64,000 nucleotides of DNA from Candidatus Babeliales bacterium (GCA_963722255.1 CAVRJO010000001.1:416001-480000), one strand, 5' to 3'. Positions 7,017-64,000 are shown, counted from the first letter of the stretch. Notes: generated by a model from the letters alone, not told the origin. Made by a program: numbers and translations.

Positions 7017-7667
7017 GTGAGTTTTATGAATATTTTTAAAATAAGCATCCATGTACTAGTTATCTTATCACTGGGTAGTTCAATAAATGGTATGGAAAAT
7101 GGAAAAGATCAACTCTTAAAAAAAGTAGTTATCGGAACCTATGTTTCAACAATTTTAGCTGAAATAGCTTTAATCGCATCACCAGCGTTTCAATCATTCA
7201 TCTTTGGTAATGAAACTGTCAATGAAGCAACTAAAAATCATATTCAGTTGCTAGCAAATTCATATAACATAAGTTCAGTTCCAACTATACAGCAGGGATA
7301 TTCATTGTGGCACAAAATTGTTGGTTCAATATTTTCCAACCATGCAACGTTATTTGTTAATCCCTCTGCAAACATTCTAACCTCCGATGCTAAAGACGAT
7401 ATTAAAAAAAGCCTTATCGCTATAGAATTCAATCGAGATCGAAACATTCTTATAGCAGCTTTAGCTGTGCCTATCTTTGTATATGGAACCCTTACGGCAG
7501 GATCGTTATTTCTTAAAAATATAGTCCCAACAGAGAATGGTATTCTGAGTAAAATCAAAATAGGGATCGATTATCTTTCTCAAAATTTTAAGCTAACGGC
7601 TTTAATAACCCTTGGAACAATCTACGGATTCATTAAAGCACAGGATTATTATTTAGCACGACGCTAA
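7017..7667 (+). CDS. Hypothetical exported/membrane protein (signal peptide then G|MEN)
   Basis: ORF with signal peptide and about 3 hydrophobic segments; start may be ATG 7026. Confidence 0.7.
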   Translation: MSFMNIFKISIHVLVILSLGSSINGMENGKDQLLKKVVIGTYVSTILAEIALIASPAFQSFIFGNETVNEATKNHIQLLANSYNISSVPTIQQGYSLWHKIVGSIFSNHATLFVNPSANILTSDAKDDIKKSLIAIEFNRDRNILIAALAVPIFVYGTLTAGSLFLKNIVPTENGILSKIKIGIDYLSQNFKLTALITLGTIYGFIKAQDYYLARR

Positions 7668-7878
7668 TAACCAAAGTAATATTTTTCAATAATTTCTGGC
7701 TTTATTCTATAAACTCTCTCTATACTGCTAATTTTGAAAAATTATATACTATCATATATCATAAATAAGCTGATTCATAAAAATCTAAAATTTTCTAATC
7801 TATTGAATACCCTCAAAAAAATATGCTATTATAAATATAAATACTAAAATGGCAAACCATAAAAAGGGGGTTAAAAAC

Positions 7879-8463
7879 ATGAAGAATAGTAAAAAATTTC
7901 TACTTATATTTATTCCATTATTCGTATCATCCTATGCTTTGGGTATGGAAAAATCTTTAGAAGAGCGGATAAAAAACCTGGAGGATAAAGTTGCTTTACT
8001 GGAAAAATCAAGCGAAGCACCAACCTATGAAAAATGTTCTCCAGATGGAAAAAATTGTAAAAGAATTACTCAAAAAAAAGCTTCTACTATAATCCGTAAA
8101 AAAGGGAAACGTCATAGAATAAGAAGATGTCGCGGTAGTCGTTGTGATTGGTTGGCTGGTCATGGAAATGTACAACAAAAATTCCAAGAACTACAAAAAA
8201 AATATGGAATAAAACCATTAACTTCACAAGAATTTGCTGCGGTACAAGGTGGAAAGCAACAACCGGGAGTAACACAGGCACAATTCAATAAACTTCGATC
8301 ACAAATTAATGAACTGTTATCAAGCAAAACTGCAACTGAAGAAGAAATAAACAAAAAAATTGATGAATTTGCACGATTAAATCCTGCGCGTAGACCTTCT
8401 CCTGAAGATTATAGAGAAGTTTTAAAAGCAAAAATTGAAGCAGAACGAGAAGAAGTAGAATAA
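7879..8463 (+). CDS. Hypothetical exported basic protein (signal peptide then G|MEK)
   Basis: AGGGGG RBS before ATG 7879; Cys pairs and an Arg/Lys cluster. Confidence 0.75.
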   Translation: MKNSKKFLLIFIPLFVSSYALGMEKSLEERIKNLEDKVALLEKSSEAPTYEKCSPDGKNCKRITQKKASTIIRKKGKRHRIRRCRGSRCDWLAGHGNVQQKFQELQKKYGIKPLTSQEFAAVQGGKQQPGVTQAQFNKLRSQINELLSSKTATEEEINKKIDEFARLNPARRPSPEDYREVLKAKIEAEREEVE

Positions 8464-8469
8464 GAATTT

Positions 8470-8508
8470 AATAATGATTGTTGCTCGGCAAGAGCAACAA
8501 TCATTATT
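8470..8508. terminator. Hairpin, likely bidirectional terminator
   Basis: 17-bp perfect stem AATAATGATTGTTGCTC/GAGCAACAATCATTATT between convergent genes. Confidence 0.75.
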
Positions 8509-9106: not shown

Positions 9107-9774
9107 AAAGCAGTATCCAATACTGATAATACCTGCAGCAAACTCTGCATAAGAGGAGTTACATATAAACTCCATTGATCCTTTTTTTTCAAACTTATTT
9201 CAATGCCAATTGCCGGACCAACAATACCTATTAATGGTTTAAAAGGTACTCCAATTGTCCCTTTATATTCAAAAAGTGAAGCATACGATTTTTGCTTTAA
9301 AGATTGTTCTAATGCAGTTGCTATCTTTTTTGTCGTAGAAAGCTTCGTTCGATGTGCCTTATCATAAGGAATAAAAGCAAGGTCAACGGTTGGTTTTTGC
9401 CAACAATCAGTACTATCGTTAAGAAAATAATAAACAAAAAGCTCAGGCTTTGGCGCATCTTCATAATAAAAATGAAAACTTACATAAAGATCAACGTCTA
9501 ATCTATTTGCAAAACTTGCATTCTGCAAAGGTTCTAATGATTCACCGGGAAATCGTGTTAAAATAACTCGTAATGAAGGATCATGAATCTCAAGATATTT
9601 TTTTAGCTTTTCAGCAAATTGAAGCGTAATTCCTCGCTCAAAAGAATCTTCGATTATCCGCCCTGCATGTTTAGCATCACCGGCCGGATCGAGCATAAGA
9701 GTAAATTGCCGCGCACAAGAGATCTGAAAAAGTATGCTCCAAAAAAATAGTTGTAGAAATTTTTTTATCGACAT
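9103..9774 (-). CDS. N-acetylmuramoyl-L-alanine amidase (Amidase_3 fold), first Zn-ligand His absent
   Basis: MLDPAGD, E, VILTR, ANRLDVDLYVSFH, PAIGIE motifs. Confidence 0.8.
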   Translation of the reverse strand: MSIKKFLQLFFWSILFQISCARQFTLMLDPAGDAKHAGRIIEDSFERGITLQFAEKLKKYLEIHDPSLRVILTRFPGESLEPLQNASFANRLDVDLYVSFHFYYEDAPKPELFVYYFLNDSTDCWQKPTVDLAFIPYDKAHRTKLSTTKKIATALEQSLKQKSYASLFEYKGTIGVPFKPLIGIVGPAIGIEISLKKKDQWSLYVTPLMQSLLQVLSVLDTAL

Positions 9775-11949
9775 GCCAAATCACTCGTTAGATACTGTTG
9801 TAAAAAGGTAACTCTCTTCATCATCTTATTATTTGTTACTGCCATGGCAACGGCCTTTGGCTGACCTATGATAATACAAAGTCTTTTAGCTCGTGTAATT
9901 GCAGTATAAAGCAGATTTCTTTGTAAGAGCATATAATGCTGCATAAATAATGGAATTATAACTGCTGAATATTCTGAACCTTGGCTTTTATGAATCGAAA
10001 GCGTATATGCTAAAACAAGCTCATTAAATTCATCAAACTCATATTCCACACTCCGTTCAAAAAAAATAACACTCATTTTTTTTTCTTCAAAATCAAGACC
10101 TTCAATAGTTCCACAATCACCATTAAAAACAGATTTATCGTAATTATTGCGAATTTGCATCACACGATCACCTACTTTAAAAATGGTGCCACCAAATTGG
10201 ATTGAGGGTCGATCTGCATGAGAATTCAAAAGAAGTTGCAGATCTTGATTTAGTTTTATTGTTCCTGCAATACCTCTATTCATAGGCACCAATACTGTTG
10301 CATCATCAGGAGCTATGTTAAAAGTTTTAAGGGTTGTCGAAAATATTTTTTTAAGATGCTCAATTACTAGTTCCGGTTTTTCTTCCTTGATAAAAAAGAA
10401 ATCTTTTTTTACATCGGGTAAGTATGAAATAGGAAATTCACCATGATTAACCTTATGTGCATTAACAATAATCATACTGTTCTGCGCTTGCCGAAAAATC
10501 TGTGTCAGCCGCACTATCGGGAATTTTACCGCTTGCAATCATATCATTCAAAAAGTTACCCGCCCCTACTGAAGGCAACTGATCACAATCGCCTATAAAA
10601 AGAACGTGTGCATGAAAAGGAACCGCTTTCAAAAGAGCAAGCGCCAAAAAAATATCGATCATTGATGATTCATCAATAATTAAAAAATCCAATTGCAAAG
10701 CATTTTTTTCATTATGCACAAAGCTCATCGTACCTACATCAAATTCAAGCAAGCGATGAAGCGTCATTGCATAGCGCCCCGTCCCCTCAATAATGCGTTT
10801 TGCAGCGCGCCCGGTTGGTGCTGCTAAACGATAAGTACAGGAATTTTCATCAAGAATTTCCAGTAACTTTTTAATTAGTGTTGTTTTACCAGTTCCCGGG
10901 CCACCCGTTATAACGGTTACCTTATTTTGCAAACAGGTCATTATACCATGCTGCTGATCTTCATTAAGGCACAGCGTTATGCCATCGTCACACGAAATTT
11001 TTTTGTACACCGCATCCAGATCAAACGATTTTTCTGTTTTTTGCTCCAATAAATTGTGCAATTTTGCCGCTACTCCTTTTTCAGAAAAATAATATTGTGA
11101 TACAGTAATATAATGATTATTTTCATAGGAAATAAGTTTAATTTTATCTTGATCATAGAGTTGATGTAGCGCCATTTTTAAAAGATCGGTACTTTCTTCT
11201 TCTAAAAGCTCAAGCAACTCTATCGTCTGTTTTTTGAGATCATCAAGCACACAATACAAATGCCCCTTAGTGGTTGCTTCACTGATTACAAAAATCATCG
11301 CAGCTTTAATACGTTTGACCGAATTTTTTTCTAAACCAAGCTTAAGAGCAATCGCATCCGCTGTTTTAAAACCGATACCCCATATATCTTCTGATAACCG
11401 ATAGGGATTATCAGTAACCAATGCGATCGATTCTTTACCATATTTTTTATAAATTTTGAGTGCATGCGCTGTGGAGACTCCTTTGTCTTGCAAAAAGACC
11501 ATAAGGTTTGAAATCTCTTTTTGATCATGCCATGCGGTAATAATCTGCTCAAGCCTTTTTTGTCCAATTCCTCCAACCTCTTTAAGTCGTTCCGGAAATT
11601 GATCAATAATAGTAAGAACTTGTGCACCAAAATAGTCAACCAACTTTTCTGCGTATACTTTTCCTATACCCTTAATAAGGCCTGAACCAAGATATTTCTT
11701 TAATCCAATGATCGATTCGGGTAGTTGTATTGAACAGCTGTGAATCTCAAATTGCCGGCCAAACTTCTGATGCATGACCCAGACACCCTTCAAGCATACT
11801 TGCTGGCCCGGTTGAAGATGCGATGCATTACCCTTTGCTATAGCAGAACTTTTATGCAATAAGGTAAGAGCGACAATGGCAAAATTGCTCTCCTCATTTT
11901 TAAACAAAATCTTATCAACAGTTCCAATAAGTTCTTCAATTTGGTTCAT
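9765..11949 (-). CDS. recD2: RecD2-like SF1B helicase, split by one extra base at ~10519-10521
   Basis: GGPGTGKT, APTGRAAKR, IIDES, GDCDQLPSVGAG in ORF 10462-11949; LTQIFRQA, HKSQGSEY, LLYTAITRAK in ORF 9765-10538; removing one C gives ASGKIPIVRLTQIFRQ. Confidence 0.9.
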
Positions 11950-12114: not shown

Positions 12115-13209
12115 ATGAAAAAAACTATTATTGCTCTAGTCCTTTCTTTAAGTTTTTTAAATACATCAGTTTATGGAATGGAGAAGAAAGCACCAAAAGC
12201 TGAAAACCTAACCCCTGAAGAAATATTTGAAAGAATATATCCATGCATTATTGATGAAGAAACAGCTTTGAACGCAACAGTAAATGTTAAGCCATTTCAA
12301 CCAGCTTTACAACCACTTCTTCATACCTGGCAAGTTAACTATGCTCGAGCTGCAAATAACAAAAAATTTTCAGAATCAGATATTTTAGCGGAGATTAAGC
12401 TATGGACCCGCATAACAGTAGAACAACCGTCTAATCCTATATATACATCCCCATTACATAAAGAAACAAACTCTGACAGAAATTCTTATCAGTTCCGAGA
12501 ATTTTTTATGAAATTAGCCTCAACAATTTATGTAGCAAGTGATGCTATTGCATTTTATAAGACATATGATGTAATTCGCCAAAATGAAGACATTATTGAT
12601 CAAATATTAGAAAGAAAAGAGTCTTCTCATTCTGCACCTGAAGGTGGTGAAAAGGAAGAGAAAACGTTTCGATTCCAAAAGACTAATGTATGGGAAGTGT
12701 TAACAAAGGGCTATCCAAAATTAAATGCTAGTGCAAATGTTGCAGAATTTCTGAATCATTTGTCTTTAGATTTTAATGAAGGAGTGTATGTGGTTGAGCA
12801 ATCTCATGATATAAGACTGTCGCCACAATCTACACGAGAAAAAGATTCCACCGATGAAAATATAGATGGACTCTCTATTTTGAAACTTATCAAAAAAAGG
12901 TTTCCTGGAAAAAAAATAGAATCGAACAATCCAAGATTACTTGATAATCTCAAGGAATCAATGTTCAGAACTGAAAATGATACGGTAATGATCAACTTTG
13001 CTAGCATTACACACAAACCAATAGAACCCAAAACCGAAAAAGAAGCAAACAAAAAACAAGCTCCTCTTGAAAACACCTCAAATACCAATAACACGGCAAA
13101 AAACAGCTCTAAATTCACACCTAACTCTTTTGCTTGCGGTGCTCTAACAACATTGGGAATTGTTGGCATTTGTTATATACCAAAATTATATCATTGGTTT
13201 CGCTCATAA
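12115..13209 (+). CDS. Hypothetical exported protein with C-terminal TM (signal peptide then G|MEK)
   Basis: 364-aa ORF, AAGGA RBS. Confidence 0.8.
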   Translation: MKKTIIALVLSLSFLNTSVYGMEKKAPKAENLTPEEIFERIYPCIIDEETALNATVNVKPFQPALQPLLHTWQVNYARAANNKKFSESDILAEIKLWTRITVEQPSNPIYTSPLHKETNSDRNSYQFREFFMKLASTIYVASDAIAFYKTYDVIRQNEDIIDQILERKESSHSAPEGGEKEEKTFRFQKTNVWEVLTKGYPKLNASANVAEFLNHLSLDFNEGVYVVEQSHDIRLSPQSTREKDSTDENIDGLSILKLIKKRFPGKKIESNNPRLLDNLKESMFRTENDTVMINFASITHKPIEPKTEKEANKKQAPLENTSNTNNTAKNSSKFTPNSFACGALTTLGIVGICYIPKLYHWFRS

Positions 13210-13278: not shown

Positions 13279-13809
13279 ATGCGTATAACAATTTTGGCAC
13301 CATGCATCATCATATTTTTTTCACTGGCTCTTAATGCAATGGAAGAATCAAATGAAGAAAGTCATACAGCGTTAAGCTCTTCTTCTATCAATACTGTAGT
13401 AGATGACACACAAAAAACTCAGATTTTTTTTGGTACGCTAGAAACTATACCATTTCTTATCAAAAATGGAGCATCAATTGCACACCATGATTCTCGTGGA
13501 TATTCTGTAATCGATCATTTCATTTTTGAAAGAAAATTTCTAGAAGCAGCGTGCGCATTAGAACATGCGGATGAAAAAGCGGCAAATGAAGCAATCTCAA
13601 AAAAGACAAGCTATTTATTCACCGACCCCTACAACCATGTGCTTGAATTTTCTGATAACGATGAAATTCAAATTCATAAAATTCTTTATGAAAAGTCAGT
13701 GGTGATACAAGAAGGCGTCCTGGGACACTTTCCAAGAATTCTTACCATTCAAGACTGGATCGCTCTTTTTAAAATCATGGCTCCTTATTGCCAACGGCTT
13801 AATTATTAA
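13279..13809 (+). CDS. Hypothetical exported protein with one ankyrin-like segment (signal peptide then A|MEE)
   Basis: FLIKNGASIAHHDSRGYSVI resembles an ankyrin turn. Confidence 0.7.
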   Translation: MRITILAPCIIIFFSLALNAMEESNEESHTALSSSSINTVVDDTQKTQIFFGTLETIPFLIKNGASIAHHDSRGYSVIDHFIFERKFLEAACALEHADEKAANEAISKKTSYLFTDPYNHVLEFSDNDEIQIHKILYEKSVVIQEGVLGHFPRILTIQDWIALFKIMAPYCQRLNY

Positions 13810-20832: not shown

Positions 20833-21976
20833 CAGGACTTCCGCAAGAGTATTTAAAGATCTGATCTAGACGTATTTTTAAAAATAAATAGACTCTCCCA
20901 AAACGTTCAAATCAAAGGAGAGCCTAAAATGATCATCTCAAATAATATAACAACTTATCCATTTCTTACAATCCTAATAAATATTGGCAAAAGAAGTTTT
21001 GAAAACATGGGTAGGTTTATTAAAAAAAGTGGCGACACTATAAGTCGAATGTTGCGACCTGGACGGCGAAAGTCTAGAGGCATCAAAAAAAATTGCGCAA
21101 CAAATTTTTGCCAATAAAAAAACTTTAATAGTCAGCAATCGATGAAACGACTATCAAAAAAATTTATTCTCAAATGATGGAAGGCACGGGGTGGCTTTTT
21201 GACACCAAAATTGGCAGAAGTGATTAATGCGTATAAGCTGATTATTGCATCGATTACAGATGGCAAGTTCACTGTGCCAATATGCGCTGCTTTTACATTT
21301 GGTAAGAGAATTTTATAAAAATCCAAGTGAAGCATAAGAATCACTGTAAAATTTTTTATTAAAACTGCTCAGGACCTTTTTCCTAGTATAAAAATTATAG
21401 CTTTTTTGGATGGGGCATTTGCCACTGTAAACTATCTAAAATGGGCTATAGAAAATAACATTGCAACTGAAGTGCGAATGCACAGTAATCGAGTTGTTGA
21501 GTATAAAGGTAAAAAGAAAAAGCTACGAGAAATAAAAGAAATAAGACCAAAGGGCAGACAAATGGCTCGAACGGTTTAAGTTATTTGGCAAGGTCTTTCT
21601 CTGGATGTTACAGCTGTAAGGCGCATTGATAAGCATGGCGATGAAACAATCGTTTTCCAAGCGGCTACTTATAAAGCAACGCCAAGCCAACATGCTAAAA
21701 ATTATAAATGGCGTTGGGGCATAGAAAAATTATATAGAACGACAAAGCAAAGTATAGGATTACAAGAATGTTTTTCAAGAAAAATAGGTACACAATTTGA
21801 TCATATTTGTGCTGTATTATTAGCTTATTCAATCGCTCAACTGGAAATGAAAAAAAATGGATTATAAAAATGCAGAAGACGCTATCAGAGCTTTTAAGAA
21901 AAAAAATCCTGCTTTTTTAAATCGATGAATTATGGCTCTAGATCAAAACAATGCTAGTGTTTATGCGTAATTCCTG
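20833..21976 (+). mobile_element. IS701/IS4-like insertion sequence, 1144 bp, decayed
   Basis: Inverted ends CAGGACTTCCGCA and CAGGAATTACGCA (11/13); 7-bp target duplication AACTTTT (20826-32, 21977-83). Confidence 0.85.
20929..21970 (+). pseudogene. DDE transposase pseudogene
   Basis: Fragments AIDET, FLDGAFAT, YKWRWGIEKLYRTTKQ across frameshifts and in-frame stops. Confidence 0.85.
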
Positions 21977-23467
21977 AACTTTTTCATTCTTTGCATAATC
22001 AATTGCAGTTTTACCTTCATTATCGCGGATATCAACTCGAGCACCTTTTTCAATTAACCATGATATAGGCCTTATAGGATCAATCCTTATTATTTCTTCA
22101 GGTGTAGCTTCAACTAAATACATTAACGCTGTTTTACCATGCTTATCTTGAATATTAAGATCAACTGTTCCCCAGTAGGCATCAATGGCTTTTATAAGAT
22201 TTCTAAATATCGCATGAAAACTGCATATAACATCCGGATGCCTGCTGCAGATATCATGCCTATCGCGAATGTAAAATCTTTCAGCAACAATCATAAAAAG
22301 CGTCTGATCTAAATCTCCCAACTGTTTATTTAAATCAAAATATTCAGTTCTACGAATATAATCATGTGGATCTACCCATCGTGCATGTAAACTTTCAAAA
22401 GCAGATTCAGTTTCATCATTACGCTTTTTTGTAAGTAATTTGAGATTTACTTCTTTTGCTTCTAATAAAAAATTCTTCACTTTTTTGTTTTTTGCATAAT
22501 CAACCGCTGCTTTACCTTCATTATCTTGTAGAGTTATATAAGCACCTTTATCTAATAACATCTGTATTGGTTTAATAACATCACGATCAGTTTGTTCCGG
22601 AGTTGCTTCTACTAAATACATTAACGCAGTTTTTCCATTGGCATCTTGAATATTTACATCAATCCCGGGGACATCAAGCACCTTTGGTAGCATCCTTTGA
22701 TTTCTCCAAGGATCGCATTTGCCGTGAGCTGTGCACGGCTCACGATATTCAACCCAATAACTTTGAGCAACAGGCATCAAAACCGTTTGTTTAAGTTCAC
22801 CAAAGGGAATATTTAAGTTAACCTTACGTGAAATTAAGGTGTTCACTATAATTAAATTTACTGAACCATAAGACGCACCAAATCTTTTCATAGAATTAGC
22901 AATACGTATTTGAGAATAATAGTCTTTATTACCAGATTCTGTTTCTAATAAATATTTTTTAACTTTATCATCTTGTGCATAATCAAGAGCCGTCTTACCC
23001 TCATGATCTTTTATACGAAGATCAGCACCTTTAGAAAGTAAATTCTGAATTGAATCAATTATGCCCATGGAGCTATAATATTTGGCCCCTGGAGGATTAT
23101 TTTCTACTAAATAGATCAACGCCGTTTTCCCTTTTTTATCTTGAGCATTTACATCGATACCCGGCTTGTTAGCAAGCTCATTAAATAATCCCGAATTTCC
23201 AACACGAACTCCGCCATAAGGCATTGGCATATAAATCGAATATCTTTGTGCAAAAATCATTAAAGGTGTTTGTTCAAGCGGCCCACCGGTTTTATTTACA
23301 TCAGCCCCTTGTGCAACAAGCTCTTTTACACGATCATATATATCAACCGTTGGCTCATTACTCAGTATAAAATCAACAAGCGATTGATTAGAATCTTCGG
23401 CATTAGACCTCATTGTAATGAACAATATCAACATAAAAACAATTTTAATAAGGCTATTTTTTGCCAT
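21938..23467 (-). CDS. Exported three-module ankyrin-repeat protein; C-terminus now IS-derived (original stop at 19857-59)
   Basis: Probable start ATG 23467 (MAKNS); three modules each ending GKTA.DYA...KVK..LLE. Confidence 0.85.
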   Translation of the reverse strand: MAKNSLIKIVFMLILFITMRSNAEDSNQSLVDFILSNEPTVDIYDRVKELVAQGADVNKTGGPLEQTPLMIFAQRYSIYMPMPYGGVRVGNSGLFNELANKPGIDVNAQDKKGKTALIYLVENNPPGAKYYSSMGIIDSIQNLLSKGADLRIKDHEGKTALDYAQDDKVKKYLLETESGNKDYYSQIRIANSMKRFGASYGSVNLIIVNTLISRKVNLNIPFGELKQTVLMPVAQSYWVEYREPCTAHGKCDPWRNQRMLPKVLDVPGIDVNIQDANGKTALMYLVEATPEQTDRDVIKPIQMLLDKGAYITLQDNEGKAAVDYAKNKKVKNFLLEAKEVNLKLLTKKRNDETESAFESLHARWVDPHDYIRRTEYFDLNKQLGDLDQTLFMIVAERFYIRDRHDICSRHPDVICSFHAIFRNLIKAIDAYWGTVDLNIQDKHGKTALMYLVEATPEEIIRIDPIRPISWLIEKGARVDIRDNEGKTAIDYAKNEKVQELRINTSIVLI

Positions 23468-23674
23468 GAGTGACCCCTGATTTAAAAATAAACTTTCTTT
23501 ATAGTAAACAGTATAACAATATTTAATTTCTAATTGCAACAATATCAACAACCTCAAAAGAAGGTTTGACTTAATGAAAAACAACCCATGTATAGATCTT
23601 GGTATTATTATTCGTCTATGATAATCTTTAGTTAAGAAGTTAAAATTTTTTCCTAATAACCTACGCAGAAACTC

Positions 23675-26078: not shown

Positions 26079-27104
26079 ATGCAAAGAGCAAAAAAACAGT
26101 TGGTTCTTAAAAAATATACCTATTATATCTTCTTGAGTAGCATATTTTTATTAAATTTTAATGCTCTCAATACTATGGAAAATAATAATAAGCATAGAAA
26201 TAAAAGAAATAAAAGTTGTTTATCGACAAAACCCCAACCTAAACTTCAACCTAGTGAAAAATTTTTAACAAGCAATCCCAATCAAATTGATTATTTTAGT
26301 TCATTACCCATTGAATTAATCGCTTTTATAACTTTATTATTGCTTGAAAATCCTCTTAACCAAGAGAAACAATATCCTGATTTTGATATAGCGTTACGCG
26401 CTGTTTTACAAGATGTTACCTCTTTTGCATTAATAAACAAGGCCATGATGTTGATTTTTTCAGATACTGAATCTGATTTTGCAAAGCAGGCTGCAACTTA
26501 TCTTACTAACAATATCACCATCAAAATTGTACTATCGAGAGATTTTTCAAAAATAAATAATCGAGATAAATTAATTGTACCTTTTTTAAAAGTTGCCCTT
26601 AAAAATCATAGAGATTATCTTTTAAAACAATTTCAAATCAATCTCAAATGGATGGAGTCTTTAAAGCAGCACACGGCAGAAGCACTAAAAACGCTCAAGG
26701 ATTATCAAGAATTAACTTATGCTCCACATGAATATACAATATTTGGCCTAAATGGCTTTGCTTTAGACAGCATTTCTACTTTATTTACAATTTTTTATAG
26801 CGGTGTAGAGCTGAAAAAAATACATTACAATAGTAGTATACAGGTAAAAAAATTCTACGATTGGCATTTCGAAAGGAGATCGCACTATTGCACACTACTT
26901 TCATTTGCTCTTGATATGGTTAATTTTAGTAAGCTCCAGGATAAACCCTTTGATTTTATTAAACTACTTATAGCTCAAGGCGCTGATCATAGCAGGATCT
27001 GTACAATACCTACGTGTAAATATCCTACACCATGGCAAGAAGCTAAAGAAATTCAAACAAAAGATCCAAGAATTTTAGCTCTATTTGATGACAATACCAA
27101 TTAA
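26079..27104 (+). CDS. Exported protein with F-box-like motif and ankyrin-like C-terminus (signal peptide then T|MEN)
   Basis: YFSSLPIELIAFITLLL; FIKLLIAQGAD...TPWQEA. Confidence 0.6.
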   Translation: MQRAKKQLVLKKYTYYIFLSSIFLLNFNALNTMENNNKHRNKRNKSCLSTKPQPKLQPSEKFLTSNPNQIDYFSSLPIELIAFITLLLLENPLNQEKQYPDFDIALRAVLQDVTSFALINKAMMLIFSDTESDFAKQAATYLTNNITIKIVLSRDFSKINNRDKLIVPFLKVALKNHRDYLLKQFQINLKWMESLKQHTAEALKTLKDYQELTYAPHEYTIFGLNGFALDSISTLFTIFYSGVELKKIHYNSSIQVKKFYDWHFERRSHYCTLLSFALDMVNFSKLQDKPFDFIKLLIAQGADHSRICTIPTCKYPTPWQEAKEIQTKDPRILALFDDNTN

Positions 27105-32032: not shown

Positions 32033-32380
32033 TTAATTATAAAGATTCTTCGTACGTATTACGTTATTTATTGCCTCTCTGCATTCTTCACATTTAACAT
32101 AGCACATCTTTATTTTTGCTAGTTCTTGCATTGATACAGTATGAGGACCTCCCTGAAGCTCAATCAAGCTATTAATATAATCAGGACTTCCTCTTACAAG
32201 CTTTTTACACCCCTTTTGACAACCATGCATGGCAATAATATTTGAAAAAATCCTTGTACAATGAGGATAATCAAGCAATGGAGAAGTTTTTACATCCAGT
32301 TCATACATCATTGCATAACCAACAGAAGCATACATAAACAAAATACAATAAATTCCTTTAATAATAATTCTTATTTCCAT
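32033..32380 (-). CDS. Small exported Cys-containing hypothetical protein (signal peptide then A|MMYE)
   Basis: AAGGA RBS before ATG 32380. Confidence 0.6.
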   Translation of the reverse strand: MEIRIIIKGIYCILFMYASVGYAMMYELDVKTSPLLDYPHCTRIFSNIIAMHGCQKGCKKLVRGSPDYINSLIELQGGPHTVSMQELAKIKMCYVKCEECREAINNVIRTKNLYN

Positions 32381-32551
32381 ATAAATCCTTTTTTGCATAC
32401 AATGTGCCATTATGTATGACTGTACCAAAATGAATCATCTCAAACAATAGTAGAACTAAATACCTTTAAAAAAAATCAATTGAGATTATCAGAGTTTTTG
32501 GCTATACTAATAACTCAAATCTGTTATAACACTCTTTAGTGTATCATTTTC

Positions 32552-34083: not shown

Positions 34084-34092
34084 GTTTATAAT

Positions 34093-35932: not shown

Positions 35933-35933
35933 T

Positions 35934-38296: not shown

Positions 38297-38328
38297 AAAC
38301 TACCTACATGTTATTAATTACCCGAATC

Positions 38329-38562: not shown

Positions 38563-38564
38563 CA

Positions 38565-40175: not shown

Positions 40176-40195
40176 ATAAAGTCCTCTACTTATTT

Positions 40196-40230
40196 AAAAA
40201 GTCACAGGTTGGAACTATGTGACTTTTTTT
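40196..40230. terminator. Intrinsic terminator after the spoVG-like gene
   Basis: AAAAAGTCACA...TGTGACTTTTT with A/T tails on both sides. Confidence 0.7.
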
Positions 40231-46984: not shown

Positions 46985-47614
46985 GTGATACAGCTTGTAT
47001 GTTTTTTACTTTTGCTATCAGTTTATTCTTTAAGCTTTTTTCCTGCACTACCAATGGAGGAAAGTCGTGAAATATTATATTCTCCAGCATATAGTGCAAA
47101 TGCAAACCATGGTCATATAGAAGAAATGGCTTATATTATAGAAAGGCATCTAGAATCGGGTGGCTATTTAGATAGCAAAGAAGATCTCGCTCAACAACTC
47201 GACACTATCAAAAGAAATGAGCATTTTAAAACAGCTGTTGAGTGGTTTGCGCGATATTACATTAGAGTTCGTCAGGATGCTGCTTGCTATGATGATCCAA
47301 AAGCAGTGGCTGATAGGGTGGAAGATTATTTAGAAAAGCAACCATTTGCTCAAGCAATAAGCAGCAATATATCAAAACAAGAACTTAATAAAATATATCT
47401 TGAACAACTACCATGGGTTGAGCAAATAACAGAGGACCCTTTCTTTCCTGCTCCTGTCATTGGTTTTTATCTCACAGATCCATACGATCTACATCCAGAT
47501 GATAAATCTATAATTCTACGCAACTATCCAATTCCACAACACCCGAGTCAAGAAAAAAGACAAAATGCACTTCTAGAATTCAAACAATGGCTAACTTGGG
47601 TAACTCAAGAATAA
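46985..47614 (+). CDS. Hypothetical exported protein (signal peptide then P|MEE)
   Basis: 209-aa ORF with AAGGA RBS. Confidence 0.7.
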   Translation: MIQLVCFLLLLSVYSLSFFPALPMEESREILYSPAYSANANHGHIEEMAYIIERHLESGGYLDSKEDLAQQLDTIKRNEHFKTAVEWFARYYIRVRQDAACYDDPKAVADRVEDYLEKQPFAQAISSNISKQELNKIYLEQLPWVEQITEDPFFPAPVIGFYLTDPYDLHPDDKSIILRNYPIPQHPSQEKRQNALLEFKQWLTWVTQE

Positions 47615-48216: not shown

Positions 48217-48885
48217 TCATTTTTTTAAGAAAATGTTCATATCAGAGTACCACCAATGAACACCAGCAAAAAAGCAAAAAAGACCCAAAATAGGAATAAT
48301 AACGGGAATTTGATTATCTATTGAAGGCTTAACTTCTTCATATTCAATAGGGTTTTCAGAGGCAATAATCTTTTCTAATTCGAACAATAACTCATCTTTA
48401 GATTTTCTACCCTTAATTTTACCCCACACTTTTCCGTTTTTAAAAACAAGAAAGCTAGGAACTGCTTCAACATTATACTCTTTCATTATTCCAGGATGAT
48501 CACTGCCATCAATAGCAGCAAATACATAACCGTCTTTTTGTTTTGCAAGTTCTTCAAAAATCGGCTTCATATATTTACATGGTGTACACCACGTAGCATA
48601 AAAATCAACAACAACCGGTTTTGATTCATTACGCACTAATTCAAAAAAGCTTGTTTCAGTATGGAGCTCAATAACTTGAGCACGATTGGCCTCAGATTTT
48701 ATTTGTTTGTCATGCTGTGCATTCTTAGGTTTATAAGCACAAACACCATCTTTGCACTTCATTTCATTTTCTGCATGAACAGTTATTTTCGTTTGATCTT
48801 TTTCTTCTGTTTCCATGGCTTTTACACCAATGCTTACTGTTGCTCCTAATAATAAGAGCATACATAGGTTAAGTTTAGTTTTCAT
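48217..48885 (-). CDS. Exported thioredoxin-domain protein with C-terminal TM (signal peptide then A|MET)
   Basis: VDFYATWCTPCK; GGAGG RBS before ATG 48885. Confidence 0.85.
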   Translation of the reverse strand: MKTKLNLCMLLLLGATVSIGVKAMETEEKDQTKITVHAENEMKCKDGVCAYKPKNAQHDKQIKSEANRAQVIELHTETSFFELVRNESKPVVVDFYATWCTPCKYMKPIFEELAKQKDGYVFAAIDGSDHPGIMKEYNVEAVPSFLVFKNGKVWGKIKGRKSKDELLFELEKIIASENPIEYEEVKPSIDNQIPVIIPILGLFCFFAGVHWWYSDMNIFLKK

Positions 48886-50958
48886 TGAGACCTCCAAAGG
48901 ATAATTTTACTATTAAAGAATGCTATATCCTCATAGAGTAGCATAAATCTCAAATTTGTCAATTCAGCTATTAATATAATTTATAATTCATAAAGTATAT
49001 TTTATTCTAATTGGATTTAACAAAAAGGGCTAGGAGGTTATACTGCATTAGCTTTAATTGTAAAAAAAAATCAGGTTCAAAGTATGTTATCATGAGCCAT
49101 TATCCTCCTACTAATAATTCAGATCAAGTAAATAGACTGAAAAATGCATTAAACAAGCTGCAAAATCATCCAAATGATCAAATCTCAGATAACTATCTTA
49201 TTGTAGTAGTTCCTAGCGAATGGTCACTAGAACTGACGCAGCCAATCCTTTAAAAAACTTATCCGTCGAAATTTTTAGGAAAACTAAATTTCTCTTGTAA
49301 CTTTTTATTTTCTACCTATTAGAAAAATAAGATATTTACTTTTAAATAGTATATTTGTTAAAATTTTAATATGCAATTATGCAATAAATTAATAAATAGT
49401 GATTTATAAGGTAAATTAGATGAAAAATTTTATTTTTTATGGCATTTTTGCCCTATTGTTTATGTCAGGAGAAGTTCATGCAATGGAGGAAAGAAAAAGA
49501 AAAGAGCCTGAAAAAGAGGAACCAGCGCAAACACGTCCAGAACTACAACAACCTCCCATTAAACGTCGAAGAATAATTTCAAAACCTACAAAAGTTAAAA
49601 CTTTAAAAGAAATTTCAAAACAAAAGTTTATTGAAGTAGCACCTGAAGTTGAAAATTTATCTGAACTTTTGGCATCAATTCCCGCTGAAGAATTACGACA
49701 ACAGATAAAAGCTGAATTTCAAAAAAGATTACCCTTTGAAGAAACCAGACTTCATAATGCAAGATCTGAACAAGAAATTGAAAATCTTTTAATACTCGGT
49801 GTTAATCCAAATTTGCAAGATAGAAGTGCCAAAACTGCTTTAAATGCTCTTATTGATAAAGGTCACCTTGATGCAGCATTTCATTTAGTTTCAATTGCTC
49901 ATGAGGCAATTCCTTACCAAAATATTCCTTTAGAAAAATTAGAAAAAGACGAAAGTATAAAACCGATAATTAAAGCACTTTTAATTGCAACACAAGGAAA
50001 TGGTCTTGATGTAAGCACTCCTGATGTTTATAAAGTTACTCCTTTACAAAGAGCTATTCAACATGAAGATTTAGAATTAGCAGTTGAAATTATTGAAATT
50101 CTTAAGCAACAACAAAAGATAGATTCAATTTATGATGTAAACCTAGCAGATATGACAGCATTAACATTAGCTATTCTTTATTTGCCTCAGCTTATTACCA
50201 CCTTCAAAGAATTAGGTATAGACTTAACGATAAAAGATGAAGCTGGAAATCCTTCACTACTTTTCCTTGCAGTAAAAAATGATAAAGCAGATGCAATAAA
50301 ATATTTAATTAATGCAGGAATAGATATCAATGAAAAAAACAATGATGGCATCAGCGCTTTAATGGGTGCAGCATCTAATAATTCACCATTAATTAAATTG
50401 CTCCTTGAAAATGGGGCCGATCCTAATGCAATGAATAATAATGGCGGAACTGTTTTAATGTTTGCAAGATTGCATCCAGAAGTAATAAAACTACTTTTGG
50501 ATGCAGGTGCTCAAATTAATAAACAAGATATATTTGGTAACACTACACTTATACATGCAATAGTAGATAATATAGAATCAGCAAAACTACTCATTAATGC
50601 CGGAGCAAATATTGCTTTGGAAGATCAGGAAGGTAAAACTGCCTTATTCATAGCAGCGACCGAAAATCCTAGCGCAATAGAACCTTTAATTAAAGCTGGT
50701 GCAGATCCTAATAAACCTAATAGTAAGGGAAAGCTTCCCTTATTTACTGCTGCAAAGAGAGGTGCATTAGAAGGTGTTAAAAAACTTTTGGAATTTGGTG
50801 CCAATCCCAATAAAAAAAGTAGAACAAGTTCTATGCAATTTAAAACTCCTTTAGAAATTGCTATAATATAATGAACCCCAGAAACTTGACACGATAAAAT
50901 TAAAAATGTGTTAGTTTTTAATGAACATGAAAGTGAACATTATTATCGGGGAATTTTT

Positions 50959-51234
50959 ATGGCAAGAAGATATAAAAAACATAGTAGTTCATTCAAAGCA
51001 AAAGTAGCTATAGATGCTATTAGAGAACAAAAAACTTTAAACGAACTAAGTCAGGAACATAGCATTGCTCCTGCACAAATCTCTATCTGGAAAAGACATG
51101 CTGAAGAAAATATGAGCAACCTTTTTGAGGGGAAACAAGAAAAGGACCAACAAGAGGAAATTGATAGGCTTTATCGAGTAATTGGTCAAATAACGGCAGA
51201 GCGTGATTTTTTAGAACGCTCGCTCAATCGATAG
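50959..51234 (+). CDS. IS3 OrfA (HTH)
   Basis: FKAKVAIDAI, ISIWK, IGQITAERDFL. Confidence 0.9.
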   Translation: MARRYKKHSSSFKAKVAIDAIREQKTLNELSQEHSIAPAQISIWKRHAEENMSNLFEGKQEKDQQEEIDRLYRVIGQITAERDFLERSLNR

Positions 51235-51254
51235 ATTTAAAGCAGCGTAAGGAA

Positions 51255-59477: not shown

Positions 59478-59694
59478 AAAGAACTCCTTGCGATAAGAAT
59501 TAATAGTAGAATCTTCAATCGCTTTAGCATACACTATTCTAATTGAAAAACAAGATGCGCTCATTCATATATAAATAAATATAACCATTTCTTCATTGAA
59601 CAATCTTCTCTTGCTTGTTTTTAATCCATTTTTCTATGCTTTCAAATGGATCATTTGTTAAGAATTCAGTATGAAGATACGTAAGGAGTTTGCT

Positions 59695-61068: not shown

Positions 61069-62661
61069 TTAGTCTTGCTTAGTTGTTACAACTTGTTCAT
61101 GAATATGCATAAGCAGTTTCTTTGCAGCACTATCCAGGGCTTGATTAACGTCTGGACACAAGGTACCCTCCATAGAATATTCTTGAGCATCTAAAGAACC
61201 TGAAATAATGCTAAAAAAATAATGGCTTTCCGGTTCATCTATCAGTCCACCCTTAATATGAGTTTTATAAATCGGTTGTTCTCTTTTAAGGTCTTTCAAC
61301 AAATTCGATAATAATAAATATGGCCTTGTGCGTGGTTTTGTAAGCTTATCAGGGATATTTTCAATAAATTTTATTTTATTTTTATCAAGATCAAAACCAA
61401 ATAGTCGATTTGCGCAATGAGCATAAAGATTCTCAGCAGCACTTTCAATTGCAGCCTTTCGTGTTAGTGCCGGCGTTCCTCTTATTGCCTTGCACAACCT
61501 ATTACTATGCGCAACACCAATAAATTTATACTCTTTTGATCCATCTTTTTCTACTTCAAATTTTGGCATATCAACTTTTTGTTTATAGGCAATCTTATGC
61601 AGCTTAACTAAAGCATTACTGGGTAACCCTGCTAACCAATCTTCTATGGAAAGATCAAAATCTTGATCAGGATTTTTTTGATACCACTCTTGCAAACTTT
61701 CAGGAGATGGTAGCAACATTTTCTTAAGCTCATCCTGGTCAGGCAATAATTCAACAAATCTGCATGCAGCACGATAAAATGCAGCACTCTTTATTGATAA
61801 GTTTATTTTACTTTCATCACTATGCTCATACCTAAAACTTTTGCCTGCAGTTAATAAGCTATCGCTTATCATTGTACATTCTATAGCCATTATTGTGGTC
61901 TGTGCTTCATAGTTCGTCTCATAGTTAATTGTAATTTTTTTGTTATTATTACTCCTCCATTGTGATAGTAGAGACTCTGGCGTCCTAGGAAGCTTGGATT
62001 TTTCCTGCAACATTGGTAACCAAAAGCGTAAAATGAAATTTTGAGCTGCTTGTGGACCACCGTCTTTATAGAGTGCAGCAATAAGTGCCATACATGATGC
62101 TTTGAGCATCGAAAGTGTAATGTTCCAATTCTTACCTTTAATACAATAGGATTCTAACCCAAGAACCTTTGACAAATCTGCCACATGTTCTTTTCGCATA
62201 AGCGCTGAACATGTATGCTCAATATCTTTGAATTTCGCCCCTTCATACTTTTTGGCAAGGACGGCCATTAATAGTTCTTGCACTATCGCAGAACCAAACC
62301 ATTCATAAAATGCACAATTACGATCTGGACAATACTTGCAAGGCGTTAATGCTTTTACTAACCTTTCAATTTTTTTAAAATTATGCCCAAGGATATATTC
62401 TAGGTGTGGAAGATCATAAAAATCAGGAAATAAATAGGCTGCTATTTTTTTATTTTCCTTTTTTTTCGCTGCATAATTAAAAGCAGTGAGCCCTCTGATA
62501 TCTTTTTGTTTAGGATCAACACCTCTTTCTTCCTTCAATGATCTTACTGCTTCAAAATCATGAGCCAACACTGCTTTTATAAGTTCAGATTGTTCCTCCT
62601 CCATACAAAAAAGGCTACAAACAGTACCAAATATTAACAACCAAAGACAAAAGATATTCAT
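61069..62661 (-). CDS. Exported ankyrin + degenerate RNase III + dsRBD-like multidomain protein (signal peptide then C|MEE)
   Basis: LE..LGHNFK...KALT, YEWFGSAI, ALIAALYKDGG..AAQNFI, RKAAIESAA, ALDSAAKKLL. Confidence 0.75.
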   Translation of the reverse strand: MNIFCLWLLIFGTVCSLFCMEEEQSELIKAVLAHDFEAVRSLKEERGVDPKQKDIRGLTAFNYAAKKKENKKIAAYLFPDFYDLPHLEYILGHNFKKIERLVKALTPCKYCPDRNCAFYEWFGSAIVQELLMAVLAKKYEGAKFKDIEHTCSALMRKEHVADLSKVLGLESYCIKGKNWNITLSMLKASCMALIAALYKDGGPQAAQNFILRFWLPMLQEKSKLPRTPESLLSQWRSNNNKKITINYETNYEAQTTIMAIECTMISDSLLTAGKSFRYEHSDESKINLSIKSAAFYRAACRFVELLPDQDELKKMLLPSPESLQEWYQKNPDQDFDLSIEDWLAGLPSNALVKLHKIAYKQKVDMPKFEVEKDGSKEYKFIGVAHSNRLCKAIRGTPALTRKAAIESAAENLYAHCANRLFGFDLDKNKIKFIENIPDKLTKPRTRPYLLLSNLLKDLKREQPIYKTHIKGGLIDEPESHYFFSIISGSLDAQEYSMEGTLCPDVNQALDSAAKKLLMHIHEQVVTTKQD

Positions 62662-62781
62662 GGCAAACCCTAAGATTAAAAAAAGTTGTTCAAAATTATT
62701 TTTAGGATATCAGATAATGCAAGATTTAAAAAATTCAATTACATCTTTTAATCTATTTTTGTGTTTCATCTTCAGGATATA

Positions 62782-63291
62782 TTATCTTTTTTTATGCACT
62801 ACAGCCCAAGGTGTTAGTGTATGCGGTTTGCAAATAGCCTTACTGTATATATCTTCTACCGCTAATCCATACACTAATAATGCATCACCAATCAATGATC
62901 GATGGCATCTCCATGGAACAGCTTCAGCACACATAAGCGCTACCGTTTTCTCATTTGCAAGTTTAATAATCTCATCTATACCTTTTTTAAACTCTTCTGT
63001 TTGCATATAATCTGCAAAACCTCGAAAAGAAGCATTTCTCCATGCTGTATTAAGAGAATCAGCATGAGCATGACGCAAACCACCTAAGTTTTTTTGATGG
63101 CGATACCCAATATGATGATTTCTTAAAACATGCGCTAACTCATGTTCATTAAATTGCGGATTATGACGCGACTTTGGGATTGTACGAATATCAACTAATT
63201 CTGTAATAGCATACTGCTTAAGAATTTCTAAAAAGTCCTCTAGTGTTCGTGTAGAATGTCCTATGGTATAAATGCGTAATTTTTTATTCAT
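62782..63291 (-). CDS. DUF488 family protein
   Basis: IYTIGHS, LVDIR..PKSR, LGG, ALMCAE..PWRCHR. Confidence 0.9.
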   Translation of the reverse strand: MNKKLRIYTIGHSTRTLEDFLEILKQYAITELVDIRTIPKSRHNPQFNEHELAHVLRNHHIGYRHQKNLGGLRHAHADSLNTAWRNASFRGFADYMQTEEFKKGIDEIIKLANEKTVALMCAEAVPWRCHRSLIGDALLVYGLAVEDIYSKAICKPHTLTPWAVVHKKR

Positions 63292-63428
63292 AAAAAACCA
63301 GCCTTTTTTTTGCTACAAAAAAATATTTTGCCCTTGTAAAGATATGAATATTTTTAGTATATTTTTTGTCATCAGTTTATTGTGACAAATAGTCTACCTC
63401 ATTTGATAAAGCAAAGGATACATCTGCT

Positions 63429-64000
63429 ATGAAGCTAAAAATATTAGTTATTACACTGTTATTTCCTCTTAATTTTTTAATTGCAATGGAAGAAGATTCT
63501 TCACAACTACCAGAAAAAGATTATTCTCCTGAAGAATTAGTGCCCATAGTTATGGAAAAAGCTCGAGCAATATTTTCAAAAAATCCTAGTTTTGATAATC
63601 GCAATTTGATTAGCGAATTCTTTTCGCAAAATCCTCAGTTCAATGCTCCAAAAGAGATAAGTGAAGGCATTGAATATAACAAAAATCTTAAATCAAAGAA
63701 CGTAGTAGTAATTGGCGCAGGCCCCAGCGGACTTATTGCCGCTTTAGCACTAGCCAAAGATGGCCATACAGTGGACGTATATGAAAAACGTTCACAAGAA
63801 GAATTTGCTCTCCGTTGGCAAAATGTTTCTATTAATGTACCAGATCTTGTCAAACGAGATTTTCCAGAGCTTGATGAACTTTTAGAAAAGCAAAAACTTA
63901 TACAGCATGAAATGGAATTAGATGATCCCACTAAGATTCGTTCCTATCGAATAGCTATCGGCGATCTCCAAAAAACATTGGCTCAGCTTTGCAATAGTTT
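63429..64000 (+). CDS. Exported FAD-dependent oxidoreductase/monooxygenase, runs off the window (signal peptide then A|MEE)
   Basis: AAGGA RBS; MKLKILVITLLFPLNFLIAMEE...VVVIGAGPSGLIAALALAKDGHTVDVYEKR; not in the ORF track. Confidence 0.85.
   Translation, partial: MKLKILVITLLFPLNFLIAMEEDSSQLPEKDYSPEELVPIVMEKARAIFSKNPSFDNRNLISEFFSQNPQFNAPKEISEGIEYNKNLKSKNVVVIGAGPSGLIAALALAKDGHTVDVYEKRSQEEFALRWQNVSINVPDLVKRDFPELDELLEKQKLIQHEMELDDPTKIRSYRIAIGDLQKTLAQLCNS

Follow-up and report, generated by a model that had tools for sequence, protein, structure and literature searches.

Met-Glu directly after predicted signal peptides of exported proteins in Dependentiae

A 64-kb stretch of DNA from a Candidatus Babeliales bacterium (CAVRJO010000001.1:416001-480000; called the window here, meaning all 64,000 nucleotides) encodes a series of exported proteins in which methionine followed by glutamate, in one case by aspartate, stands directly after the predicted signal peptide, that is, at positions +1 and +2 of the mature chain. 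The window, which belongs to the phylum Dependentiae (TM6) and to a bacterium of the amoeba-parasite type, has a G+C content of 32-36% and is densely coding. Its housekeeping genes include recO, a large MscS channel, an amidase, a split recD2, a deoxynucleoside kinase, the c, b, delta and alpha genes of ATP synthase and a P-type ATPase, and many orphan open reading frames (ORFs) with hydrophobic N-termini are also present. The Met-Glu genes are clustered at 7.0-8.5 kb, 12.1-13.8 kb, 47.0-50.9 kb and 61.1-64 kb. An earlier note on this DNA had listed eleven cases of Met followed by an acidic residue, and all eleven are found where it placed them (Table 1), each Met being preceded by a hydrophobic stretch started by Lys/Arg or Asn.

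The note's identification of the cargo holds for the thioredoxin, the ankyrin protein and the FAD/NAD Rossmann fold, as well as for the weak RNase III-like match in 61069..62661, whose sole homologue among 5.8 billion proteins (P0039) carries Ribonuclease_3 and dsrm domains. For 26079..27104, which had been called F-box-like, Pfam detects no F-box even at E<=5, and a homology search of the 5.8 billion proteins matched 12115..13209 to itself only. The ORF at 47789-48094 overlaps a longer antisense ORF; it was removed by the overlap filter and stands outside the statistics given below. A further doubtful case at 32033 does have Met at +1 as proposed, but the chain continues M-M-Y-E and so lacks Met-Glu.

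Table 1. Exported proteins of the window with Met at the predicted cleavage site, contrasting signal-peptide proteins, and apparent signal-peptide forms of normally cytoplasmic or eukaryote-like enzymes in related loci. A slash marks the predicted cut.
Feature	Coordinates	Strand	Junction	Residues -3, -1	Signal peptide	Met-Glu/Asp codons	Remarks
Orphan membrane protein	7017..7667	+	ING/MEN	I, G	~7026-7091	7092-7097	Likely start 7026; no Pfam family
Orphan	7849..8463	+	ALG/MEK	A, G	7879-7944	7945-7950	No Pfam family at E<=0.01
Orphan, C-terminal hydrophobic anchor	12115..13209	+	VYG/MEK	V, G	12115-12177	12178-12183	
Orphan	13279..13809	+	LNA/MEE	L, A	13279-13338	13339-13344	No Pfam family
Orphan	26079..27104	+	LNT/MEN	L, T	26079-26174	26175-26180	
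Orphan	46985..47614	+	ALP/MEE	A, P	46985-47053 (hydrophobic N-terminus)	47054-47059	
Small ORF, 101 amino acids	47789..48094	+	INA/MDL	I, A	47789-47860	47861-47866	Antisense overlap
Thioredoxin, C-terminal membrane anchor	48217..48897	-	VKA/MET	V, A	48885-48817	48816-48811 (Met codon 48814-48816)	
Ankyrin-repeat protein	49420..50871	+	VHA/MEE	V, A	49420-49482	49483-49488	Basic KRRR stretch
RNase III-like, weak ankyrin match	61069..62661	-	LFC/MEE	L, C	62661-62605	62604-62599 (Met codon 62602-62604)	
FAD/NAD(P) Rossmann flavoenzyme	63429..64000	+	LIA/MEE	L, A	63429-63485	63486-63491	Runs off window
Doubtful extra case	32033..32428	-	GYA/MMYE				Beside mobile element
Ankyrin protein	21938..23584	-	SNA/EDS				Contrast, no Met
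Ankyrin protein	43526-44302		ASA/LTQ				Contrast, no Met
Thioredoxin-ankyrin protein	58314-59564	-	GS/EQN				Contrast, no Met
Barrel-like outer-membrane protein	13806-14705	-	S/IVYN				Contrast; paralogue of next
Barrel-like outer-membrane protein	14721-15617	-	S/IVYN				Contrast
Third barrel paralogue	56846-57742	-	S/MVYNF				
Adenylate kinase	L004:12388-13029						
UCH deubiquitinase	L005:7068-8351						
Histone-deacetylase-family enzyme	L005:12168-13325						
Hydantoinase/oxoprolinase	L009:12604-15591						
MavL-like ADP-ribosylhydrolase	L011:4629-6101						
PP2C	L023:7637-8464						

In all eleven window cases the signal peptide is of the Sec type, with an n-region and an h-region of 7-15 residues, though the positive charge is weak or absent in 46985, 61069 and 13279. 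Residue -1 is Gly, Ala, Thr or Cys in ten of them and the non-canonical Pro in one (46985..47614), and residue -3 is aliphatic or small in all. Taking every M-[E/D] site past an h-region in the window and in 24 related loci, with no filter on -1 or -3, gives 36 sites, at which -1 is Ala in 19, Gly in 5, Cys in 3, Ser in 2, Thr in 2, Pro in 4 and Gln in 1, and -3 is Leu in 13, Val in 8, Ile in 5, Ala in 4, Ser in 2 and another residue in 4. A small -1 (31 sites) and an aliphatic or small -3 (33 sites) support the claim that the motif lies at sites of the signal-peptidase type. Other classes of signal fit poorly. No lipobox L-[AS]-[GA]-C with Cys at +1 occurs among the eleven, which have Met there (in 61069 the Cys of SLFC is at -1), none of the eleven n-regions has the twin arginine of Tat signals, and the hydrophobic segment lies upstream of the cut, which does not match type IV prepilin-like (class III) signals. 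Neither RxLxE/Q/D nor RxLR(-dEER), host-targeting motifs that lie some 20-40 residues or less past the signal peptide, is visible in the mature N-termini listed, where Met-Glu/Asp abuts the signal peptide. A shared signal cassette was considered and rejected, the signal peptides being unrelated to one another in sequence. Judged by their sequences, the signal peptides are real and of the Sec type, and a peptidase-compatible site, at which cleavage is predicted, lies directly before the Met.

The 24 loci, about 440 kb of relative sequence, were fetched by aligning the window's three barrel-like outer-membrane paralogues against genome_contigs (32-40% identity). Because they were picked through a gene unrelated to the motif, they form an unbiased sample for it. 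All come from metagenome assemblies. By title, eleven are Candidatus Dependentiae or Babeliales and one is an "uncultured Pseudomonadota", the other twelve being named just "uncultured bacterium" or "bacterium", and on these matches the window is assigned to Dependentiae. The window's own genome is not among the loci, the best match having 40% identity. ORFs of at least 80 amino acids were called in the window and the loci and overlaps removed, leaving 539, of which 280 were flagged as having signal-peptide-like N-termini by a simple hydrophobicity rule, with no dedicated predictor. A permitted cleavage position was one near the end of the h-region with -1 in AGSCT and -3 in AVILSTGC; ORFs were counted per residue type at +1, and expected counts were derived from the composition of the mature parts. 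As a control, 200 kb of E. coli K-12 was passed through the same pipeline, giving 40 signal-peptide-like ORFs among 172.

Met is strongly over-represented at permitted +1 positions, with 11 found against 1.0 expected among the window's 33 signal-peptide-like ORFs (all other residues stay at or below 1.4-fold) and 56 against 9.3 among the 247 of the loci (every other residue at most 1.6-fold), both Met counts including the barrel family used as anchor (S/MVYNF). When that family is left out, Fisher tests give odds ratios (OR) of 7.0 for the window (p=2.9e-4) and 3.2 for the loci (p=3.5e-8). Counted per ORF, there are 10 Met and 9 M-[E/D] in 30 for the window and 47 Met and 20 M-[E/D] in 225 for the loci. 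In E. coli, Met was found once against 3.7 expected, the single case being FhuA, in which the Met lies within the signal peptide. A six-frame scan of the window for a start, a hydrophobic stretch, M-[E/D] and at least 40 open codons returned eight sites under a strict filter, all in the genes already listed. Among the loci, 19 of 24 have Met at a permitted +1; the densest, L022, has five M-[E/D] and Met in 9 of 13 signal-peptide ORFs, followed by L017, L021, L016 and L011. The M-[E/D] pattern is therefore real and far above chance, and the lineage specificity that had been proposed is borne out by its recurrence across Dependentiae loci and its absence from the E. coli control.

The cargo of these signal peptides is biased. 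Seven of 12 Met(+1) proteins in the window and 27 of 49 in the loci have no Pfam family; those assigned in the window are the thioredoxin, the ankyrin protein, the weak RNase III-like plus ankyrin match and the Rossmann flavoenzyme, while the loci contribute eight ankyrin proteins (one fused to Skp1/POZ), two MYND fingers, a WD40 propeller, a PLD-like protein and signal-peptide forms of normally cytoplasmic enzymes, namely hydantoinase/oxoprolinase and MsrAB. For comparison, 99 better-filtered signal-peptide proteins lacking the Met comprise 49 with no family, several cytoplasmic false positives and 11 in envelope families (OMP_b-brl, Phenol_MetA_deg x3, Legionella_OMP x2, Autotransporter, YidC, Amidase_3, M48 and FKBP). 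Of the 49 Met proteins, 11 have eukaryote-like domains, compared with 5 of the 99 non-Met proteins (p=0.003); for ankyrin repeats the figures are 8 of 49 and 2 of 99 (p=0.002), and for envelope families none of 49 and 11 of 99 (p=0.016), although the two sets differ in filtering and E-value cut-off (1e-5 and 1e-8), so that these contrasts are indicative only. Within that limit, the expectation of an enrichment by cargo class is upheld, effector-like cargo being favoured and envelope families avoided. The first 30 mature residues are also more acidic in Met proteins than in non-Met signal-peptide proteins (D+E 17.1% vs 10.5%, p=3e-6), and membrane segments do not differ significantly between Met-Glu and other signal-peptide proteins.

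Several features of these families are worth recording in their own right. In the tandem paralogues at L010:245-1921 and 1966-3657 a signal peptide (AQG/M) is joined by a MYND zinc finger at the C-terminus, a domain typical of eukaryotes, and six loci entries appear to be signal-peptide forms of normally cytoplasmic or eukaryote-like enzymes (Table 1). The two exported thioredoxins of the window, 48217-48897 and 58314-59564 (both on the minus strand), are paralogues with the common motif CKDGVC-x-Y, only the first having Met-Glu; its layout of signal peptide, thioredoxin domain and transmembrane segment resembles eukaryotic TMX proteins, and the second is a thioredoxin fused to ankyrin-like repeats. 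The statement that barrels lack the motif is right for two of the three window paralogues, and the third has the Met with no acidic residue after it. This exported family of about 300 amino acids has no Pfam family and shows a conserved mature N-terminus S-[I/M]-VYNF-[R/K]-IAQITKQ; with three copies in the window and one in each of the 24 Dependentiae loci (L001-L024, around position 10001), it may be a phylum-signature outer-membrane protein.

In homologues that have diverged to 28-57% identity the Met is kept in seven of eight comparisons, the flanking residues varying and insertions or deletions occurring nearby. The window flavoenzyme 63429 and L011:15260-16528 (57%) have LIA/MEED and LVA/MESD with indels directly after, and 61069 and P0039 (33%) have LFC/MEEEQ and ILA/MEKEQ. 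A like picture is seen between L014:18615 and L022:15247 (33%; LVA/MNSQ and LVA/MENQ) and within pairs from L017 (28-34%; ALA/MEKP and VYA/MDIS), L021 (40%; VVA/MEKE and LFS/MTEN) and L010 (53%; AQG/MSFS and AQG/MLPS), while an L007 trio (31-34%) has two Met and one Ile. The signal peptide itself is conserved at the protein level among homologues. Of conserved non-effector families, the lactonase-type propellers and the 55983 family were compared, and neither conserves the Met.

Some of these proteins suggest where the Met comes from. The Skp1-like protein L022:17136 has the junction SAA/MQLETISLISSDG, given also as SAA/MQLETISLISSDGKTF. A PDB search pairs its Met20 with the initial Met of the yeast Skp1 chain (1nex_A, a weak match, E=0.008) and its residue 25 with residue 3 of Dictyostelium SKP1a (6v88_A, E=1.4e-5), placing the Met about two residues from the SKP1a start; the mature protein would thus start where eukaryotic Skp1 starts. 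Two near-identical relatives of this region were found, one possibly 5'-truncated. In a signal-peptide MsrAB of L016 the Met lies within about 3-4 residues of where homologues with no signal peptide begin, and the hydantoinase, normally cytosolic, has a signal peptide and Met-Glu 17 residues upstream of its first domain. For the L011 flavoenzyme orthologue, a full-library search returned four close relatives and distant ones with no signal peptide. The DUF488 gene L020:3869-4444 carries a 16-codon hydrophobic in-frame extension upstream of a start conserved in four homologues. The extension represents either a proto-signal peptide or an artefact of gene calling, and it indicates that AT-rich upstream DNA easily supplies raw material for signal peptides. 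The Skp1-like, MsrAB and hydantoinase proteins suggest that signal peptides were put immediately in front of complete ORFs. That the Met is a retained initiator is thus partly shown. The idea of grafted signal cassettes survives in this form, as a graft that accounts for the Met, and fails as regards a common cassette sequence.

The residue after the Met points to constraint on the protein. In 57 non-barrel proteins with a permitted +1 Met, +2 is Glu in 27, Asp in 2, Asn in 2 and Gln in 2, the others having a residue that permits Met removal by methionine aminopeptidase (A, S, G, T, V or P; 14), a hydrophobic residue (6) or Lys/Arg/His (4). Native second residues, taken from 64 cytoplasmic genes with starts supported by a Shine-Dalgarno (SD) motif, are instead Lys (18), Asn (8), Glu (3) and Asp (3), so that Glu or Asp in 29 of 57 against 6 of 64 (p=1.6e-15) goes far beyond what a retained bacterial start would give. 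It also exceeds the 29 of 154 seen at +2 in non-Met signal peptides (OR 4.5, p=9e-6). Met-[D/E/N/Q], the sequence class of the N-terminal acetyltransferase NatB, is found in 33 of the 57 and in 11 of 11 window cases. A signal in the mRNA was considered and rejected, as GAG is not over-used (it makes up 10 of the 31 Glu codons that follow the Met, compared with 25% in the genome as a whole; p=0.41), nucleotides are not conserved past the codons and the inner ATG is not preceded by an SD motif; at the -1 codon the third base tracks the AT bias. As far as sequence can tell, the constraint is shown to lie on the amino acids, not on the codons.

The inner ATG could also be a second initiation site, giving a cytoplasmic isoform that lacks the signal peptide, an alternative the earlier note had raised. 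It is always ATG, that of 49420 has AGGAGA 12 nt upstream (the sole window case with an SD-like motif), and a 74% identical relative of the Skp1-like protein is predicted from the Met, though it is uninformative because its 1,349-bp contig may be missing the 5' end. An SD-like tetramer 4-18 nt upstream is found at 20 of 35 outer ATGs but only at 2 of 36 inner ATGs, which equals the background of 5.7% among 1,820 deep internal ATGs and makes both mis-called starts and SD-driven dual initiation unlikely. The window agrees, with a GG-containing purine motif 4-11 nt upstream of 9 of 11 outer starts; for three genes the likely true starts (7026, 7879 and 48885) are not the most upstream codons, 7879 having AAAAGGGGG just upstream and 48885 lying downstream of GGAGG, and the GTG start of 46985..47614 is preceded by AAAGGAAC. 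Moreover, the inner ATG is followed by Glu, where the lineage's true starts typically have Lys (28-35%), a small -1 residue would be needless, and it is hard to see what ankyrin, MYND, WD40 and Skp1-like cargo would do within the bacterium. No suitably spaced -10-like box for a leaderless transcript start at the inner ATG was seen by eye, with no formal test. Dual starts are hence disfavoured and seem to us quite improbable. Hardly credible as a general account is that the Met is the true start and the upstream "signal peptide" chance-open untranslated AT-rich sequence. At least two rows of the screen, L020 DUF488 and L005:5584, are artefacts of this kind with mis-called starts. Yet with an estimated ~7% stops per random codon, open extensions of 20-30 codons in 11 of 11 cases are unlikely, SD motifs precede the outer starts, the n/h/c architecture is present with protein-level conservation, and the six-frame scan finds such sites in the listed genes only. 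Ala or Gly stands at -1 in 24 of 36 sites, and since their codons are GC-rich and rare in these genomes, the -1 pattern is not the one to be expected of untranslated AT-rich DNA. A neutral relic, in which 5' extension into AT-rich DNA or a fusion has left a functionless old start codon, we consider unlikely. The Skp1-like, MsrAB and hydantoinase proteins do have their Met at or near the ancestral start, the DUF488 extension shows how readily such extensions emerge, and most Met-Glu proteins are orphans that could be young. A relic would, however, scatter around the cleavage site, where Met is in fact concentrated at +1, and would retain native second residues (Lys 28%, Asn 12.5%, Glu or Asp 9%) rather than 51% Glu or Asp. 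The old SD motif is gone and -1/-3 have been remodelled, yet the ATG codon stays, and the Met persists in diverged homologues.

The explanation that we prefer, with a probability of roughly 0.4, is that the cut regenerates a Met-Glu N-terminus kept by selection, most likely as a host-like end for exported cargo. Signal peptidase I would cut the Sec-type signal peptide immediately before the Met, and in Dependentiae this arrangement would be the usual export equipment of host-directed cargo. The signal peptide would stand directly before the present or former initiator Met of an otherwise complete ORF, in some cases eukaryote-derived as for the Skp1-like protein, so that cleavage would regenerate a Met-initiated protein; the Met, and above all the Met-Glu pair, would then be held by selection on the mature N-terminal amino acids. 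N-termini of the type Met-Glu/Asp/Asn/Gln keep their Met, belong to the class acetylated by NatB and are not Arg/N-degrons, and such an end would look like an ordinary eukaryotic N-terminus in the cytosol or nucleus of the host. From the sequences we could show lineage-wide spread, cargo bias, conservation of the Met and constraint at the protein level; that selection acts on the exposed Met-Glu end, and that this end has an effect in the host, we infer. A host-like N-terminus fits the cargo, and it fits statements on secretion into the host in passages of two papers on this phylum (PMC4378268, PMC6561590). Of the interpretation first offered for the motif, lineage specificity, position at cleavage sites, effector bias and conservation have stood up, and the alternative of dual starts has not.

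A number of observations weigh against this explanation. The hydrophobicity screen is crude, with cytosolic false positives such as MurA and Ldh, and Pro stands at -1 in 4 of 36 sites. M-[E/D] occurs at a permitted site in just 9 of 24 loci and is absent there from the three lowest-GC loci (L002, L006 and L023), and Met is borne by just about one fifth to one third of signal-peptide proteins; the rule may be specific to a clade or to genomic islands. The non-Met set includes effector-like proteins (Ank x2, UCH, HDAC, PP2C, PLA2_B x2 and a MavL-like protein), and in the window the ankyrin proteins 21938 and 43526 and the thioredoxin-ankyrin protein 58314 have no Met, so the association with cargo is a bias and not a rule. 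Clusters resembling nuclear localisation signals are not significantly enriched (7 of 35 vs 16 of 154, p=0.15), and the Met of thioredoxin 48217 lies about 50 residues upstream of the domain and is not the ancestral thioredoxin start. Some effector-like proteins would expose a destabilising Glu, Asp or Leu, so stability in the host is no universal requirement, and as Ala, Ser, Thr and Gly are equally stabilising, the N-degron idea alone fails to explain Met. NatB normally acts on nascent chains, and acetylation of a protein delivered post-translationally is unproven.

Two further accounts give the Met-Glu end a function of another kind. It might be read as a sorting tag by machinery of a second step (type II secretion, loading into vesicles or another outer-membrane route) that separates host-bound cargo from resident periplasmic and envelope proteins, making it an address label comparable, by analogy, to the Plasmodium PEXEL motif or the ASAFAP +1 residue in a parasite that has only Sec and type II secretion. 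The split in cargo, the exact maintenance of +1/+2 while neighbours drift and the more acidic and polar first 30 mature residues would suit such a tag, but the motif is missing from many effector-like signal-peptide proteins, this analysis identified no candidate receptor, and membrane segments (7017) or C-terminal anchors (12115, 48217) suit type II secretion poorly. Type II substrates are not known to use linear N-terminal signals. Precedents are described in passages on mature N-termini of Plasmodium (PMC10653839) and on the +1 Phe of ASAFAP (PMC4329603). We hold this account possible but rather unlikely. Improbable is a purely envelope-side role, in which Met-Glu helps the lineage's signal peptidase, or protects against aminopeptidases or is modified against them, by analogy with the Q-rule of Bacteroidetes. 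The motif is exactly at the peptidase site, and excerpts of two papers indicate that a phylum-specific +1 rule with a role in stability exists (PMC5837995, PMC10653852). Against it, envelope and periplasmic housekeeping proteins skip the motif, which makes a Q-rule-like role less likely given that the Q-rule covers most signal-peptidase substrates, and no modifying enzyme was identified in this analysis. Signal peptidase I is also generally tolerant at +1.

The arrangement can be set beside several known systems. PEXEL is an RxLxE/Q/D pentamer that lies about 20 residues past the signal and is cut by plasmepsin V, and mature exported proteins of Plasmodium have an acidic or polar residue at position 2; in the import of proteins into complex plastids, the Phe at +1 of ASAFAP decides onward transport. 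Listeriolysin O is said to be a further N-degron case after Sec export into the host cytosol. As far as passages of PMC10653839 describe it, the PEXEL route resembles the present case in its hydrophobic ER/Sec-type signal, its processing and a new N-terminus that directs host delivery, but the Met-Glu set has no Rx-L and its cut is that of signal peptidase itself. The ASAFAP motif, in the parts of PMC4329603 that concern it, is similar in that the residue past the signal-peptide cut is conserved in one cargo class, and differs in being eukaryotic and aromatic at +1, followed by a transit peptide. In the toxin cases treated in portions of PMC2518864 and PMC3755998, the residue exposed by removal of the signal peptide likewise sets the fate in the host cytosol; those are single proteins with various N-terminal residues, whereas Met-Glu is found lineage-wide. 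The closest likeness is to the Bacteroidetes Q-rule, a phylum-specific preference at +1 of type I cleavage sites seen statistically, in which, according to passages of PMC5837995, Gln at +1 of signal peptidase I sites is cyclised to pyroglutamate. The Q-rule concerns Gln and most substrates, while here Met is coupled with Glu at +2 in a minority of exported proteins with a bias to host cargo. In the window and loci, Gln is not the +1 residue of most substrates (0.67-fold and 1.2-fold of expectation at permitted sites, respectively), and the enriched residue is Met.

Within the phylum, Babela massiliensis and Chromulinavorax destructans have the same cargo classes with Sec signal peptides. The relevant passages of the C. 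destructans paper report signal peptides in 44% of coding sequences and 78% of ankyrin proteins (PMC6561590), and those of the B. massiliensis paper predict signal peptides of which some are "somewhat atypical" (PMC4378268). In these passages such proteins are stated to be secreted into the host, and Dependentiae emerge with up to 44% of genes carrying signal peptides and no dedicated effector-injection system known (PMC6561590, PMC4378268). The same passages of both papers give counts of predicted signal peptides, not a cleavage-site rule. The word methionine is absent from PMC6561590; the passages on signal peptides in PMC4378268 contain no Met rule, the word itself not having been searched there. 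A full-text search of openly accessible papers, judged by the passages it returned, found no Met or Met-Glu cleavage-site rule described for Dependentiae. A lineage-specific Met rule at signal peptidase I sites, which by analogy would be of the same kind as the Q-rule, is apparently new.

Other features of the window lie outside this question. A RecD2-type helicase is encoded by two overlapping ORFs, 9765-10538 and 10462-11949 (minus strand), with OB/HHH/AAA_19/AAA_30 domains in one and SH3_13/UvrD_C_2 in the other, which suggests a frameshift or pseudogene. An AAA-ATPase_like / PD-(D/E)XK gene (PF09820/PF08011) is present in three plus-strand copies (18442-19558, 23675-25234 and 30432-31961), the first being split between two ORFs and almost identical in sequence to the second, and the third lying directly after atpA, the usual place of atpG and atpD. 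In a probable integrated mobile element at about 32600-40200 (~32.6-40.2 kb), a large serine recombinase (32614-34083) is accompanied by a primase zinc-ribbon protein (37070-38296), a DUF5906 helicase-like protein (38565-40175) and a SpoVG homologue (40236-40505), together with small exported orphan ORFs. Directly after the ankyrin effector 49420-50871 comes a pair of IS3-like transposase genes (HTH_Tnp_1 and rve; 50908-52136), and a lone HTH_Tnp_4 fragment lies at 19976-20413. A glycine/arginine-rich low-complexity exported protein (1026-1592, minus strand) adjoins a Gln-rich protein (250-870, minus strand), both with no Pfam family.

Dependentiae are a widespread phylum of protist parasites in whose genomes host-directed cargo cannot at present be told from envelope proteins, and a two-residue rule would offer a testable handle on this division. 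Met-Glu would be just the second phylum-specific rule at +1 after the Q-rule of Bacteroidetes. It would also suggest how effectors are built in such parasites, by setting a Sec signal directly before the start codons of complete genes, of which some derive from eukaryotes, and the fate of Sec-exported effectors in the host according to their mature N-terminus becomes directly testable. Should the pair prove to be an address label, the effector repertoire of the phylum would be readable from two residues, and a new principle of recognition for secretion across the outer membrane would be at hand.

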